Below are positions 8,234 through 18,407 of a stretch of 47,469 nt of DNA, one piece after another; the first letter of the stretch is position 1; the number at the start of each line of letters is the position of its first letter. The notes below the pieces were generated by a model. The model was not told where the DNA came from. It saw nothing but the letters and a program-made list of their open reading frames with translations, and made no database searches. This DNA comes from a virus. Its lineage: Duplodnaviria; Heunggongvirae; Uroviricota; Caudoviricetes. Both the position numbers and the translations under genes were made by a program. Where the stretch lies: IMG/VR virus record IMGVR_UViG_2877274432_000010; one strand, 5' to 3'.

Positions 8234-8379
8234 GTTGCGTGCTGAATACGCAGGGTGAAAAATAACCATATATTTGATTATATACACAACAAAAAATAAA
8301 AGTCATTGTACTTGCACATTAAACAATCAAATATACGGCGTGAAATAAATATTTATCAGATTAATATTTTTGTCTCTAT

Positions 8380-8631
8380 GTGGATATAACCGTTTGTACT
8401 TATAAACCTGGGGGCATCGTGGAAAAAATAAAGAAACTATTTAGTAGCAAATACGCAGTCATACGTCGTGATGACCTGTCAGTTATAGTCGAAATGGATT
8501 ACTTCCCTGAAACCCCAAAATCAATAATGTATCGTAATGGTCGAAAGGCAATTTTTTTACCGATGAGGGTAAGTGACATTATGGGAAATGATAAACTGCT
8601 GGATGAATTGCGAGTCAGAGCATCCTGTTAG
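8380..8631 (+). CDS. Hypothetical protein (size and position like rem of Qin-type prophages)
   Basis: 83-aa ORF in AT-rich context downstream of hok; stop codon lies inside the IS1 target duplication. Confidence 0.4.
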   Translation: MDITVCTYKPGGIVEKIKKLFSSKYAVIRRDDLSVIVEMDYFPETPKSIMYRNGRKAIFLPMRVSDIMGNDKLLDELRVRASC

Positions 8632-8648
8632 TAGGTAATGACTCCAAC

Positions 8649-9152
8649 TTACTGATAGTGTTTTATGTTCAGATAATGCCCGATGACCTTGTCATGCAGC
8701 TCCACCGATTTTGAGAACGACAGTGACTTCCGTCCCAGCCTTGCCAGATGTTGTCTCAGATTCAGATTATGTCGCTCAATGCGCTGAGTGTAACGCTTGC
8801 TGATAACGTGCAGCTTTCCCTTCAGGCGTGATTCATACAGCGGCCAGCCATCCGTCATCCATACCACGACCTCAAAGGCCGACAGCAGGCTCAGAAGACG
8901 CTCCAGTGTGGCCAGAGTGCGTTCACCGAAGACGTGCGCCACAACCGTCCTCCGTATCCTGTCATACGCGTAAAACAGCCAGCGCTGACGTGATTTAGCA
9001 CCGACGTAGCCCCAATGTTCGTCCATTTCAGCGCAGACAATCACATCACTGCCCGGTTGTATGCGCGAGGTTACCGACTGCGGCCTGAGTTTTTTAAGTG
9101 ACGTAAAACCGTGTTGAGGCCAACGCCCATAATGCGTGCACTGGCGCGACAT
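8649..9152 (-). CDS. insB: IS1 InsB
   Basis: 167-aa ORF. Confidence 0.85.
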
Positions 9153-9479: not shown

Positions 9480-10079
9480 ATGGCGCATATACAACTGGTC
9501 AAACAAACCTCTTCCGGATTACTTCTCCCGGCGACGCCGGAGAGTTGCGATTTTTTGCATCAAATCAAAATAGGTGAGTGGATACACGCAGACTTTAAGC
9601 GTGTGCGTAACTACGCATTCCACAAGCGTTTTTTCAAACTCCTGCAACTGGGATTTGATTACTGGACTCCGGTCGGTGGGGCGATCACGCCTCGCGAACG
9701 AAAACTGGTATCAGGCTTCGTTGATTACCTGTGCGAATCAGTAGGTCGGGAACACACTCCAGCCCTGAGTGATGCCGCAGAGCAATACCTTAATACAGTT
9801 GCGACATGCAGAACCCGGGATACGGCATTGCTAAAGTCGTTTGACGCTTTCCGCGAGTGGGTAACCATTCAGGCCGGATTTTACACCGAGCATATTTATC
9901 CTGATGGTAGTCGTGGGCGCAGGGCAAAATCTATCGCATTTGCGAACATGGACGAAACCGAGTTTCAGCAGGTTTATAAATCTGTACTGAATGTGCTGTG
10001 GAACTGGATCCTGTTCCGTAAATTTTCCTCTCCGGAGGAAGTCGAAAATGTGGCCGCGCAGTTACTGGAGTTTGCGTAA
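9480..10079 (+). CDS. Lambdoid nin-region protein (YdfU / DUF1367-like)
   Basis: 199-aa ORF; position between rem-like gene and the YbcO-like gene; family assignment from memory, uncertain. Confidence 0.45.
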   Translation: MAHIQLVKQTSSGLLLPATPESCDFLHQIKIGEWIHADFKRVRNYAFHKRFFKLLQLGFDYWTPVGGAITPRERKLVSGFVDYLCESVGREHTPALSDAAEQYLNTVATCRTRDTALLKSFDAFREWVTIQAGFYTEHIYPDGSRGRRAKSIAFANMDETEFQQVYKSVLNVLWNWILFRKFSSPEEVENVAAQLLEFA

Positions 10080-13208: not shown

Positions 13209-13285
13209 GGCCCTTTAGCTCAGTTGGTCAGAGCGAGCGACTCATAATCGCCAGGTCGCTGGTTCAAGTCCAGCAAGGGCCACCA
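13209..13285 (+). tRNA. tRNA with CAU anticodon (Met or Ile2/lysidine type)
   Basis: Cloverleaf with 7-bp acceptor stem GGCCCTT/AAGGGCC, anticodon loop CTCATAA, T-loop GGTTCAAGTCC, 3' CCA; resembles E. coli ileX but diverged. Confidence 0.75.
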
Positions 13286-13286
13286 A

Positions 13287-13363
13287 CCACCACTAGCTCA
13301 TCCGGATAGAGCATCAACCTTCTAAGTTGACGGTGCGAGGTTCGAGTCCTCGGTGGTGGGCCA
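13287..13363 (+). tRNA. tRNA-Arg (UCU)
   Basis: Acceptor CCACCAC/GTGGTGG, anticodon stem TCAAC/GTTGA, loop CTTCTAA, T-arm CGAGG-TTCGAGT-CCTCG, CCA end. Confidence 0.8.
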
Positions 13364-13365
13364 GC

Positions 13366-13441
<76 letters not shown>

Positions 13442-13444
13442 TAT

Positions 13445-13519
<75 letters not shown>

Positions 13520-13633: not shown

Positions 13634-15238
13634 ATGATTCAGCTATCCAGTAGTCACAAACTTCCAGCAGTCTACTATCTCTACCAGCGTAACGGCGTCT
13701 ACTACTTCCGTCTTAGGGTCAGACAATCAAACAATGATAGAATGACCTCAATATCATTACGGACCAAGGATAGACGCACCGCTATGGCTTACTCAAGGCA
13801 CATAAAGGCAGCACTCAAGGCAATACACGCAGACAGACCCAACGCTACCTATGAGGAAATGAGGGAACACCTTAAGGACATCGCTGAGTGTGAACTGTCT
13901 ATGGGCCGTTCAGATCTCTTTGAGCCTGACATGAGGGATATCTACCGGGACCAATACGGAGAACTTGGTGAGAGCCTTACCGATGCTCTGGCTAGTGAGC
14001 CGCTAAGCATTGACCAGCATCGTTACATCAATGAGGCCCTGAAGGTGCTAAAAGCCTGTATGAGGCGTATCGAAGCGGGAGACAGTCAGCCTCTGATAGA
14101 TTACGTCGATCTTTTTAATGATATTGATAGGCAAGATAACCAAGCAGACTCTGTGTCCCTATCTGTTAATGCTCCAGAAGTAAAACCAGAAGTTACGCCT
14201 AGCATTACCATAGCGAGCCTCTTTGAACAATACGAAGCGGAGAACTATCAGAACTGGAAGCCTGCAACCTTAAGGGAAAACAAGGCGTCACACGCTGCGT
14301 TAATCGAAATATTCGACCATCTGGGTCTCAATGCAGACGCTAACAGGGCTGACATGCTTAGGGTCCGTGATGTGCTCCAGCAGTTACCTAGGAACCGTAA
14401 GCAGCGCTTCAAGGATGTCCCACTTGCTGACCTGTTGAGCCGTGAAGATAAGACAGATTGTCTGGATGTCGTTACCATCAACAACAAGTATCTTATTAAG
14501 ATGGCTGCTGTCTTTAGGTGGGCTGTGCGCAATGACTTGATTAAAAAGAACATGACTGAGGGTCTGGAGCTTAAAGTCCCTCAGCGTAAAGCCTCAGGGG
14601 CCCGTAACGCCTTCTCTACGGAGCAGGTGGGGCAACTACTGGTCGCAGCTAAGGCATACTCTCAGAAGACCTCTGGTAAGCCGTATCATTATTATGTTAC
14701 CGCCTTGGCTGCTATCACTGGGGCGAGACTCAATGAAATAGCCCAACTACAGGTCAAAGACGTCAGGACCACTGAGGCGGGAACCGTTTATATTCATATC
14801 AATGAAGACGATAGTAGTCTACCCGGTAAGAGCATCAAGAACGCTCATAGTGACCGCTGTGTGCCTCTGGTCGATGGGGCCTATGGTTTTATATTGGCTG
14901 ACTTTATGGCGCTTGTAGAGACCCGTAGAGGCGCTGACGGTGATGACGCTATGGTGTTCGATGGTCTGCGTCTCATGAAGAACGGTTACGGTGAGCAGGT
15001 GAGTAAATGGTTTAATCGGACGTTGTTGCCTAAAGTCCTCGTAGACCGTAGCGGCTTAGCGTTTCACTCGTTTAGACATACAGTTGCGGCCCAGTTAAAA
15101 CAACATGGGGTCGAGTTGGCGTATGCACAGGCGATCATGGGGCATAGTTCAGGGTCTATTACGTACGACCGTTATGCTAAAGAGGTCGAGGTTGATAGGC
15201 TGGTCAATGTGATGGCTGATGTTTATAAGGAGACCTAG
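13634..15238 (+). CDS. Tyrosine site-specific recombinase (integrase), 534 aa
   Basis: C-terminal catalytic region with HSFRHTVAAQL...HSSGSITYDRYA pattern (R, H-x-x-R, Y); starts 114 bp after the tRNA-Gly 3' end in the same orientation. Confidence 0.8.
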   Translation: MIQLSSSHKLPAVYYLYQRNGVYYFRLRVRQSNNDRMTSISLRTKDRRTAMAYSRHIKAALKAIHADRPNATYEEMREHLKDIAECELSMGRSDLFEPDMRDIYRDQYGELGESLTDALASEPLSIDQHRYINEALKVLKACMRRIEAGDSQPLIDYVDLFNDIDRQDNQADSVSLSVNAPEVKPEVTPSITIASLFEQYEAENYQNWKPATLRENKASHAALIEIFDHLGLNADANRADMLRVRDVLQQLPRNRKQRFKDVPLADLLSREDKTDCLDVVTINNKYLIKMAAVFRWAVRNDLIKKNMTEGLELKVPQRKASGARNAFSTEQVGQLLVAAKAYSQKTSGKPYHYYVTALAAITGARLNEIAQLQVKDVRTTEAGTVYIHINEDDSSLPGKSIKNAHSDRCVPLVDGAYGFILADFMALVETRRGADGDDAMVFDGLRLMKNGYGEQVSKWFNRTLLPKVLVDRSGLAFHSFRHTVAAQLKQHGVELAYAQAIMGHSSGSITYDRYAKEVEVDRLVNVMADVYKET

Positions 15239-15326
15239 AGGAGACCATAGTCTAGGATGACACTTACTACAGACCTGTGTGGTCATGTTTTTGACTCATA
15301 GTTTTCTCTACTTGTCAAGTGATAAT

Positions 15327-15349
15327 TAATACGACTCACTATAGGGAGA
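15327..15349 (+). promoter_or_regulatory. T7 RNA polymerase promoter consensus (copy 1)
   Basis: Exact TAATACGACTCACTATAGGGAGA; predicted +1 G at 15344, transcription rightward. Confidence 0.7.
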
Positions 15350-15447
15350 AGGGACACAAAAAGTTTTCTCTTCTAGGATGACACTTACTACAGACCTGTG
15401 CGGTCATGTTTTTGACTCATAGTTTTCTCTGCTTGTCAAGGGGTAAT

Positions 15448-15470
15448 TAATACGACTCACTATAGGGAGA
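15448..15470 (+). promoter_or_regulatory. T7 RNA polymerase promoter consensus (copy 2)
   Basis: Exact TAATACGACTCACTATAGGGAGA. Confidence 0.7.
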
Positions 15471-15567
15471 AGGGACACAAAAAGTTTTCTCTTCTAGGAT
15501 GACACTTACTACAGACCTGTGTGGTCATGTTTTTGACTCATGGTTTTCTCTACTTGTCAAGGATAAT

Positions 15568-15590
15568 TAATACGACTCACTATAGGGAGA
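15568..15590 (+). promoter_or_regulatory. T7 RNA polymerase promoter consensus (copy 3)
   Basis: Exact TAATACGACTCACTATAGGGAGA. Confidence 0.7.
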
Positions 15591-15620
15591 AGGGACACAA
15601 AAAGTTTTCTCTTCTAGGAC

Positions 15621-15987
15621 AACTAACCGTAACTTATCGCATCCTTTCAGGGGCGGGATGACCAATTACAGACACCAAGCGTTCTACTTAAAGTGAATGC
15701 TTCCTGTGTGCTCTGGGTCAGTCGATAAGTGAATAGCAATAAGACACAATCATCTTAATTATGGTCTCTAGTCCCTACAGGGGCTTAACTTAAAGTTAAC
15801 TTAAAGACACAATTAAAGATTAACTTATAGTATTACTTAAAGTTAACTTAAAGACACAATTAGAGATTAACTTTAAGTATTAAATAAAAGATTTAATTAA
15901 AGACCAATTAAAGATTAACTCTAAGGGAATACCTTAAGGGGTGATGATATTTATAATAATCAATCACCAAACCTATAGGTCTTCTCT
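15621..15987 (+). repeat. AT-rich region with short tandem repeats (TTAACTTAAAG / AAAGATTAACT modules)
   Basis: Two ~47-bp tandem units at about 15797-15890 and further degenerate copies; no ORF; region ends at the IS911 insertion. Confidence 0.75.
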
Positions 15988-16059
15988 TGAAGTGGCACAC
16001 TGAATTTGGCCACCTGAACAGAGGTGATATGCTCACCTCAGAACAACACAGGTGCTCCA

Positions 16060-17882
<1,823 letters not shown>

Positions 17883-18110
17883 TCTAGGGTCTCTCTATAG
17901 GTCTTCTCTATGGTCTCTCTATAGGTCTCTCTAGGGTCTCCTCTAGGCATTACCCCCAGAAGCTAACTCTATGGCCCTCTATGGTCCTCTATGGCCCTGT
18001 ACGTCATTCTTTAGGATGCCCTGTAGTTTCGTATAGCCTGATGCCTAGAGAGACCCTAGAGAGACCCTAGAGTGGCTCCTAGAGAGACCCTCCCAGTAGC
18101 TCCGCACAGC
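17883..18110 (+). repeat. Arrays of a 13-bp motif (GGGTCTCTCTAGG-like) in direct then inverted orientation
   Basis: Direct copies at 17883-17945, CTATGGNCCT x3 in the centre, inverted copies CCTAGAGAGACCC x3 at about 18048-18100; the same motif also flanks the left side of IS911 (15965-15987). Confidence 0.8.
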
Positions 18111-18251
18111 TACATCGTCATCATCATAGTATTCAATCTCAAAGTCATTCTGTTTGCATCCTGTTGTCCTGCTGGTCTCCCTTCGCTTGGGGACTTTGAG
18201 TAGGTCAGTGGGGGTGCGACTTCAGGGTGCAAACAAAAAGGAAATCAAGCG

Positions 18252-18407
18252 ATGTCTCAACAACCACAACAACCACAACAAGAAATCAGCATCATTAACC
18301 TCGACCAGCTTGTGTCCATGACCTCAGTTGAAATTGCTGAGCTGACAGGCAAGGAGCACCGAAATGTCCTTCGTGATATTCGTAAGATGCTCGAAGAACT
18401 TAACGCG
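18252..18407 (+). pseudogene. Rha-family phage regulatory protein, N-terminal fragment truncated by IS1
   Basis: SMTSVEIAELTGKEHRNVLRDIRKML matches the Rha N-terminal motif; frame runs into the IS1 end at 18408. Confidence 0.55.

Follow-up and report, generated by a model that had tools for sequence, protein, structure and literature searches.

The stretch of DNA considered here, a 47,469-nucleotide IMG/VR virus record (IMGVR_UViG_2877274432_000010, called the window at its full length), carries an AT-rich tandem-repeat block downstream of three perfect T7 promoters. This block is one module of an integrase-bearing island that sits in a tRNA-Gly gene and belongs to a class already published as the T7 islands; the copy in the window is a decayed Shigella flexneri remnant in which the promoters and the AT block are intact. 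The reading preferred here, to which a probability of about 0.5 can be given, is that the block would act as the unwinding and priming region of a cis-acting origin dependent on a helper, the T7 replisome. The layout of the island appears to copy that of a T7 origin, which most likely lets an infecting T7-like phage transcribe the island and probably lets the phage replicate it as well. As the class of element has been known since 2006, this is not the discovery of a new kind. The initial annotation of this stretch had pointed to a resemblance to a T7 origin, which has stood and goes further than was said at the time, and had missed the membership of the block in a class of integrase-bearing islands.

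The features on which the origin reading rests are the following.

15327-15349, 15448-15470 and 15568-15590, rightward: T7 class III promoters, each an exact copy of the 23-bp TAATACGACTCACTATAGGGAGA.

15776-15938, no strand assigned: AT-rich block, 23% GC (0.233), with CTTAAAG-type words, primase sites and the stability minimum.

15806 (GACAC), 15853 (GACAC) and 15902 (GACCA), bottom strand: T7 primase sites in the AT block.

An AT-rich tandem-repeat block with units of ~47 bp near the T7 promoters had been described beforehand, and both Tandem Repeats Finder and a duplex-stability profile bear the description out. The core at 15785-15920 was called with a period of 47, 2.9 copies, 86% matches and a score of 200, and scores too at period 23 and at period 11 (consensus TTAACTTAAAG, 6 copies); the reiterated modules that had been picked out, TTAACTTAAAG, AAAGACACAATTA and AAAGATTAACT, are each present in the sequence. 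The GC content is 0.184 across this core and 0.233 across the full 163 bp. The melting prediction that had been proposed as a check identifies the block as the least stable duplex of the 47,469-bp window at 60, 100 and 140 bp alike, with a duplex free energy at 140 bp of -147 kcal/mol against a window mean of -197 (standard deviation 10). Some of the boundaries had to be redrawn. The DNA had been taken to become AT-rich directly after the promoters; 15621-15775 is in fact 43% GC, and the AT block proper, with an AT content of 77-82%, begins at about 15776, ~190 nt past the last transcription start. The end formerly placed at 15987 turned out to be the left junction of an IS911 insertion, with the native sequence picking up again at ~17886.

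Exact TAATACGACTCACTATAGGGAGA has three matches in the whole window, all of them in the promoter array, where none would be expected by chance, and the closest promoter of T7 itself is phiOR, leader included (36 of 42 positions match, with 19 nt of leader). What the initial annotation stated of T7, namely a primary origin of two promoters followed by an AT-rich segment and CCTAAAG-type arrays beside the terminal repeat, agrees with the T7 record. Of 12 island AT blocks, 11 contain CTTAAAG itself, and 11 show a strong excess of words of the CTTAAAG, CCTAAAG, CTTATAG, CTTAGAG and CTTTAAG types. The same words are in equal excess in the AT regions of T7, with 4 observed against 0.06 expected after phi1.1B, 3 against 0.06 at phiOL and 2 against 0.10 at phiOR; because the word family was defined after both sets of sequences had been viewed, this result is a description and not an independent test.

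The gene-4 primase of T7 recognises 5'-GGGTC, TGGTC and GTGTC in its template. Three such sites fall in a 141-bp stretch of the block (19% GC) where 0.064 would be expected, and a single one of 20,000 shuffles reached three, with the caveat that the three are not independent because the block is a tandem repeat. All lie on the same strand as the lone GACCC in the AT region of the T7 primary origin. A ranking of the 512 strand-collapsed pentamers in non-coding sequence from 23 non-redundant islands put TGGTC/GACCA at the top (151 observed, 38 expected, z = 18), with GTGTC at rank 17 and GGGTC at rank 39; counting unique contexts only, there were 268 primase sites against 106 expected, with 23 of 23 islands above expectation, and no strong longer motif was found around the pentamers in these islands. 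Whole arrays of primase pentamers are present in some members of the family (related loci are numbered here with an L), such as GATGACCATAGGC in 14 copies in the island of FT130 (L001 11770-11935), GGGATGACCCAA in eight copies in L040 (3136-3252), and the arrays at 17886-18091 of the window, built on CTCTAGGGTCT, CTCTATGGTCT and CCTAGAGAGACC. Such short tandem arrays differ from island to island, yet most centre on T7 primase pentamers.

The strand on which these sites lie changes at the block. In 12 islands of the sub-family that has an AT block (sub-family A), the sites to the left of and inside the block were divided into 27 on the top and 54 on the bottom strand, and those in the 400 bp to the right into 40 and 17 (Fisher p = 3e-5). 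Seven divergent lineages gave 7/25 (top/bottom) for the left and inside against 25/7 for the right (p = 1e-5), and the strand bias opposes the local GC skew. The switch is what one would expect of forks leaving the block in both directions. The T7 helicase-primase runs 5'-to-3' along the template of the lagging strand; for a fork moving leftward this template is the bottom strand, and for one moving rightward it is the top strand.

Among 26 islands compared, the AT block is present in the 14 of sub-family A, where it is 90-165 bp long with 22-28% GC and sits 180-275 bp (up to 420 bp) past the last promoter. The opening of the block is nearly constant, reading GGGGCT(T)AACTTAAAG or GGGGCT(T)AA(A)CTTAAAG, and beyond this motif the sequence changes fast and duplicates in tandem, with AT-richness retained. 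Iterons for an island protein were considered as the identity of the repeats and ruled out, as the type of the first cargo gene varies (KilA-N, Rha and others) while the start of the block stays conserved. All 25 of the 25 aligned related islands have 1-4 T7-group promoters, defined as N10-CACTATAGGGAGA with at most two mismatches, located after the integrase gene or after the RAZR gene considered below, and essentially all co-oriented. The specificity regions of these promoters vary among islands, widely so across genera, and include TAATACGACT (T7), AATTAGGGCA (K11), AATTAACTAT, AATTAACCCA, AATAACGACT and others, and E. coli ESY003 and K. pneumoniae ATCC 13883 have mixed arrays with K11, T7, K11 and a fourth type. 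The mixed arrays (L005 8387-8965 and L011 ~8263-8840, the fourth type being AATTAGGTAG) are near-identical in E. coli and Klebsiella pneumoniae.

DNA combining the promoters with the block was found in 91 of 5426 complete E. coli genomes, every time in the chromosome and never annotated, and related integrases occupy the same tRNA-Gly site in 385 of the 5426 and occur across the Enterobacterales. Twenty further loci were collected from Klebsiella, Lonsdalea, Rouxiella, Pectobacterium, Morganella, Enterobacter, Citrobacter, Buttiauxella, Shimwellia, Kluyvera, Proteus, Serratia and Edaphovirga, plus several E. coli variants, so that the islands, of about 4-7 kb, span at least 13 enterobacterial genera besides E. 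coli. The sister islands are located in the tRNA-Gly gene glyU, and a 23-bp piece of the tRNA 3' end is directly repeated at their two borders; the two copies of this att repeat were placed at ~9982-10004 and 14262-14284 in L001, and L004 is likewise two-ended. Intact islands are carried by E. coli strains such as FT130 and 1332KP. The FT130 island, at 917623-921902 of NZ_CP040090, is ~4.3 kb long and consists, in order, of tRNA-Gly (glyU), the integrase, short tandem arrays, two T7 promoters, the conserved segment, the AT block, the inverted repeat, further short arrays, the conserved leader, a KilA-N gene, a gene for a small membrane protein and the 23-bp repeat of the tRNA end. Between the AT block and the cargo of FT130 (L001 12718-12770), and likewise in L003, lies a further T7-like promoter in degenerate form, CAATACGACTTACTAATAGGAGA, with three AATCAATACG copies ahead of it.

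The cargo of the islands comprises KilA-N and Rha/Ant proteins, small unknown or membrane proteins and, in one island, a Fic/Doc-family protein. This last (Pfam E = 3e-9) is encoded at ~9320-9670 of L030, from Edaphovirga cremea, and fits a toxin-like or defensive view of cargo driven by phage promoters. No replication initiator, primase, helicase, terminase, capsid protein or recognisable excisionase was found with Pfam or PHROGs among the island open reading frames (ORFs) tested. An island without replication proteins of its own would have to depend wholly on the phage for any replication.

A direct link to T7 comes from the gene that overlaps the integrase gene in many sister islands, which is a full-length match to PD-T7-4, also known as RAZR (PADLOC E = 2e-102). 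This DUF4145/HEPN gene was located at 3260-3901 in L004, 7745-8377 in L005, 7735-8394 in L006 and 1861-2502 in L007, and also in L011 and others; it is absent from the island of the window, where the promoter array directly follows the integrase gene. RAZR is a HEPN RNase that the T7 and T3 portal proteins switch on and that defends against both phages (PMC13017515; PMC9519451), so that the link of the sister islands to T7/T3 through RAZR is experimentally established. Its discoverers remarked that PD-T7-4 'often overlaps an integrase gene' (PMC9519451), and the RAZR-integrase overlap of the sister islands agrees with this remark. Text searches of the RAZR papers returned no mention of T7 islands, of natural phage promoters or of an origin-like block beside the gene. 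Where RAZR overlaps the integrase gene it sits directly upstream of the natural phage-polymerase promoters, and in islands without RAZR its position is filled by short tandem arrays.

These observations can be assembled into a sequence of events. When a T7-like phage infects, its RNA polymerase would fire the consensus promoters of the island, as their perfect identity leads one to suppose, and the transcripts would cross a conserved, probably structured leader before reaching the duplex that is least stable in the region. There the T7 DNA polymerase might take up the 3' end of the RNA or the opened DNA, as at the T7 primary origin, and the gene-4 helicase-primase could then load and prime at the many GTC-type sites on both sides of the block; this priming step is suggested by the architecture, the enrichment of primase sites and the polarity switch. 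The same transcripts would express the cargo, be it KilA-N, Rha/Ant, small membrane proteins or, in one case, Fic. Amplification would raise the dosage of the cargo and set up competition for the phage polymerase and replisome, to the gain of the host, and concatemers might perhaps become available for occasional packaging. We infer firing by T7 RNA polymerase in vivo, priming from a transcript or opened duplex at the block, and amplification of the island. In infected cells T7 does replicate plasmids bearing a T7 origin (PMC13236587, citing Chung & Hinkle 1990). For the class as a whole, it is put forward tentatively, at rather less than even chances, that T7 islands are working, gene-poor parasites or guardians of T7-group phages that replicate by means of a cis-acting copy of the T7 origin, made up of phage-polymerase promoters suited to the phages of the locality, an unwinding block and arrays of oriented primase sites, with infection amplifying them and switching on their anti-phage cargo.

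Several observations weigh against an origin. The alignment with T7 that had been suggested as a check gives an identity of just 64-70% between the block and the T7 origin, in low-complexity, AT-rich stretches, so that the likeness lies in motifs and is not alignable homology. The block begins ~190 nt past the last start site, compared with ~10 nt past phi1.1B in T7. Roughly half of the islands, those forming sub-family B, have no AT block, and the block is therefore dispensable for this class of island. GGGTC, the strongest T7 primase site, is mildly enriched and does not take part in the flip of polarity, and several unrelated conserved motifs likewise switch strand at the block; the polarity test was moreover post hoc, and the shared ancestry of the islands inflates all of the counts. 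Finally, no excised, circular or concatemeric form was seen among 29 metagenome or proviral contigs, these being the 3 IMG/VR and 26 metagenome contigs in which the conserved segment of the island was found. The IMG/VR matches were read as proviral predictions in isolate genomes because of their IMG taxon-style names and because two of the three match the IS-disrupted Shigella layout. Integrase-bearing contigs of 4.2-4.4 kb (L007, L008 and L010) were considered as free circles and rejected, being chromosomal fragments with no terminal overlap, and contigs of 4.4-7.3 kb from the pattern scans have no terminal repeats. The predicted attP junction (...CGATACTTCGATTCCCTTCGCCCGCTCCATGAC...) was found neither in IMG/VR nor in the metagenome collection; for excision the attP and circle negatives are weak, as the samples were not infected cultures.

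The main rival holds that the module serves expression only, with the promoters switching on defence or abortive-infection cargo and the block being a T7-style leader or spacer that has no role in replication, its AT-richness and CTTAAAG words copying T7 intergenic or leader DNA such as the gene 10 leader TTAACTTTAAG. This accords with cargo that is defence-like and not satellite-like (RAZR in the sister islands, Fic/Doc, membrane proteins, KilA-N and Rha/Ant), with a sub-family B that manages without the block, with the position of the block in a transcribed region between conserved, probably structured RNA segments, and with the failure to detect a free or amplified form in the contigs scanned. 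A passive spacer, however, would leave unexplained why AT-richness is retained amid sequence turnover and tandem duplication, why no other stretch of the window is as unstable as the block, and why primase pentamers are enriched family-wide with a polarity switch centred on the block, and the expression-only account is judged unlikely, if still a serious contender. It is rather improbable that the promoters, block and primase arrays form a decoy, tying up the phage RNA polymerase and the gene-4 helicase-primase and so slowing the development of the phage, with no productive replication or transfer of the island. Such a sink would make sense of the strongest possible T7 promoter being present in multiple tandem copies whose number varies among strains, of arrays that are almost purely primase sites (those of FT130, L040 and the window at 17886-18091), and of the association of the islands with a known anti-T7 gene. 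Yet many islands have no such arrays, the polarity switch is expected of a working origin and not of bait, and a single copy in the chromosome makes a poor sink without prior amplification, a condition that returns one to the origin model.

If packaging were its role, the island would count as a true transducible satellite: an end of the T7 genome would be mimicked by the block together with the GGTGAT...ATCACC hairpin and the short repeats, so that concatemers are cut and packaged. This is held to be quite improbable. The order of a phiOR-like promoter, AT-rich DNA, GGTGAT...ATCACC and repeats of the CCTATAG/CCTAGAG type parallels T7 39229-39777, the presence of one family at tRNA-Gly sites in many genera shows horizontal mobility, and there are precedents in the packaging by T7 of plasmids with an origin, a pac site and a terminal repeat (PMC13236587) and in the PICMI satellites of ~5.5 kb, which virulent phages package as concatemers (PMC10803314). 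Against this, a blastn search set for distant matches, run with the module and with the whole intact island, returned promoter-sized matches only from 50,697 phage records, in which no terminal repeat or concatemer junction showed homology; an island that has promoters for several phages could hardly carry every matching pac site; and neither an excisionase nor a small terminase was recognisable among the island ORFs tested. The promoter-sized matches also indicate that the AT block was not captured from a known phage. The class II pause signal ATCTGTT had no exact match in the regions read by eye, with near-matches ATTCTGTT and ATCCTGTT in the leader, although no dedicated motif search was made. 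The hairpin at 15940-15968 is kept in L001, L003, L005 and L011; its likeness to the T7 repeat is real, but it is given little weight as mimicry of a T7 end because it is weak (z ~ -1.8). The packaging idea is thus not supported, its hints being the GGTGAT...ATCACC repeat and the similar order of features. The initial annotation had proposed a likeness both to T7 origins and to the T7 end repeats, and only its first half survives, through the words, the primase sites and the phiOR match; the half concerning end repeats and packaging is left unsupported, as neither terminal-repeat homology nor an attP junction nor a circular contig was found. Barely credible, lastly, is a host-side silencer or insulator, in which the block would nucleate H-NS-type silencing or bar read-through from int/RAZR and so keep toxic cargo off until a phage polymerase arrives. 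Extremely AT-rich, horizontally acquired DNA does lie between constitutively needed genes and potentially toxic cargo, and T7 gp5.5 is annotated in the T7 record as an H-NS inhibitor; this proposal has nothing to say on the T7-specific words, the primase sites and their polarity, sub-family B lacks the block, and neither an intrinsic terminator nor an excess of sigma-70-like promoters was detected in 15200-16000. Identification of the region as a terminator or a sigma-70 promoter cluster was dropped on the latter result.

The remaining features of the island in the window are as follows.

13445-13519, + strand: tRNA-Gly(tcc), called by ARAGORN, last gene of a prophage-type cluster Met/Ile-Arg-Thr-Gly; integration site, attL side.

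13634-15238, + strand: tyrosine integrase of 534 aa (Pfam Phage_integrase, E = 2e-17).

15251-15619, + strand: 121-bp unit in 3.1 copies, with one perfect T7 class III promoter per unit.

15621-15775, + strand: segment of 43% GC that separates the promoters from the AT block and is conserved in 31 related loci.

15940-15968, no strand assigned: inverted repeat GGTGATGATATTTATAATAATCAATCACC, which resembles GGTGATTATATTGTATTAGTATCACC located 3' of T7 phiOR (T7 39329-39355).

15988-17882, + strand: IS911-type insertion with terminal inverted repeats, a TCT target duplication and an internal partial duplication.

17886-18100, no strand assigned: continuation of the module as short tandem arrays (Tandem Repeats Finder), CTCTAGGGTCT / CTCTATGGTCT / CTCTATAGGTCT, CTCTATGGCC and CCTAGAGAGACC.

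18101-18251, + strand: conserved leader of the first cargo gene, containing CCTGCTGGTCTCCC, which is invariant, and the stem CTCAAAGTC/GACTTTGAG, which shows covariation in other islands.

18252-18407, + strand: 5' part of a Rha/Ant-type cargo gene (Pfam Phage_pRha, E = 6e-10), cut by IS1.

The flank is homologous to other E. coli genomes up to exactly the 3' end of tRNA-Gly(tcc) and no further. The target used here is the tRNA-Gly(tcc) of a prophage-type tRNA cluster (13209-13519) and not the chromosomal glyU that is used in E. coli, and in related genomes this cluster adjoins a gene with an ORF6N domain; the island integrase can evidently use a second, phage-borne tRNA-Gly target. The integrase matches a Shigella flexneri protein cluster of 769 members at 100% identity, and its ORF ends 13 bp short of the promoter array with no gene between. 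The number of promoter units is 1, 2 or 3 depending on the strain. No gene of the size of an RNA polymerase was noticed in the list of ORFs for 9-27 kb, in which no search was aimed at one. The DNA that flanks the island is Shigella/E. coli chromosomal and prophage sequence.

The conserved segment at 15621-15775 is predicted to fold into a domain of ~100 nt with the closing helix ACTTATCG/CGATAAGT, followed by a small hairpin just 5' of the AT block. RNAalifold gave a closing helix of 9 bp with one compensatory pair, UA to CG; support for the fold is modest because the variation stems from two haplotypes alone. In the Klebsiella-type haplotype the closing helix becomes ACTCATCG/CGATGAGT, and the apical hairpin sequences are wholly different. 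Rfam matched the tRNA and nothing else; the ~100-nt segment (within 15621-15740), for which it gave no match, may be a structured RNA made by the phage polymerase. The inverted repeat that follows the block, GGTGAT...ATCACC, forms a hairpin of modest stability.

The IS911 element, in which ~17237-17882 repeats the 3' part, splits the non-coding module of the island; it is foreign to the island and missing from the intact sister islands. Beyond it, most of the array units in 17886-18100 hold T7 primase pentamers. The leader is kept 5' of the first cargo gene in almost all islands (window ~18130-18251, L001 12860-12985, L005 9350-9475), its stem CTCAAAGTC/GACTTTGAG becomes CACAAAGTC/GACTTTGTG in L005, and part of it resembles the region of the T7 R1.1 RNase III site (15 of 17 nt). 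IS1 spans 18408 to ~19175, and a full-length homolog of the Rha/Ant gene that it truncates is present in L006. A second att repeat was not found in the window, where only the tRNA-side copy is present, and the island is classed as a truncated member because its right end was lost to IS1 and rearrangement, leaving one att repeat.

A few kb downstream, at ~23112-26561 on the minus strand, are the sitABCD iron/manganese transporter genes and prophage tail-fibre genes, surroundings that fit the Shigella flexneri 'sit island' of the literature. A review cites Chen & Schneider 2006, the paper on T7 islands, in the part that deals with this island, and given that citation and the adjoining sit genes the locus in the window is probably among the original T7-island examples. 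Elsewhere in the window, at 43197-43409, a 60-bp tandem repeat (3.5 copies, 75% matches) lies in a region of ~40% GC and is unrelated to the island.

Should the origin reading be true, a virulent phage would replicate a chromosomal island by means of cis-acting DNA alone, a new minimal design for a satellite or an inducible defence, and T7 islands would be the first known case in nature of elements that commandeer a phage replisome through mimicry of its origin and nothing else. They would also be the natural genomic context of RAZR, explaining the integrase beside an anti-T7 gene that was characterised in 2022-2026, and a source of natural phage-specific sensor modules in the form of promoter sets for the T7, K11 and other polymerases. 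There could be a bearing on phage therapy that uses T7-like phages against E. coli, Klebsiella, Shigella and relatives. The enrichment of primase sites, the polarity switch, the sub-families, the phage-matched promoters and the RAZR link together turn the description of 2006 into a sharply testable hypothesis.

That description, by Chen and Schneider, reportedly covered 12 islands of 4-13 kb in nine enteropathogens. The islands are said to have 2-3 tandem promoters, an upstream integrase and direct repeats of 17-24 bp, and reportedly were proposed to be satellites of T7-like helper phages. The element in the window is of the same class and almost certainly the same Shigella flexneri locus as one described then (Chen & Schneider 2006, Nucleic Acids Res 34:1133, PMC1380254). 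Shared features are tandem T7-like promoters with no polymerase gene, an upstream Int-family integrase, residence in enterobacterial pathogens, terminal short direct repeats (in the sister islands) and few phage-related, non-structural genes. The accessible literature, a comparison that leaves the 2006 paper itself outside, does not contain the primase enrichment and polarity switch, the two sub-families, the extension of the class to hundreds of genomes of E. coli and to more than 13 genera, or the RAZR link. No experimental follow-up of T7 islands was found in the searchable literature, and they are absent from the recent satellite and defence papers that were retrieved.

The T7 primary origin, made up of phi1.1A/phi1.1B and a 61-bp AT-rich region, likewise has tandem promoters that fire into an AT-rich segment and, as in the block of the window, a gene-4 primase site on the same strand. 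CTTAAAG, CTTTAAG and TTAGAG words are common to the island block and the T7 primary, phiOL and phiOR origins, and the R1.1 RNase III hairpin between the two T7 promoters has a parallel in the structured RNA element near the island promoters. Compared with the T7 origin, the AT block of the island is 2-3 times longer, is tandemly repeated and resides in a bacterial chromosome beside an integrase gene; the origin role of the island is read from sequence, and the likeness is one of motifs only. The PICMI elements (Barcia-Cruz et al. 2024, PMC10803314) are likewise minimal integrated islands, of ~5 kb, in which a gene overlaps that of the integrase, non-coding regions are large and the cargo is anti-phage. 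They depend on virulent phages, by which they are carried as concatemers in capsids that are not remodelled, they have an AlpA and a primase of their own and integrate beside fis in Vibrionaceae, and their excision, replication, packaging and transduction have been demonstrated. Of the PICMI core of int, alpA and prim, T7 islands have int alone, no AlpA or primase being found by Pfam or PHROGs among the island ORFs tested; they differ also in using promoters of a phage polymerase. In T7 transducing phagemids (Chung & Hinkle 1990, as used in PMC13236587), packaging needs the T7 pac site and terminal repeat in addition to the origin, and counterparts of these were not detected for the island in the comparison with the 50,697 phage records. 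The same phagemids, being DNA that is free of phage genes and is nevertheless replicated by T7 through a cloned origin, provide a laboratory precedent for what is proposed for the islands.

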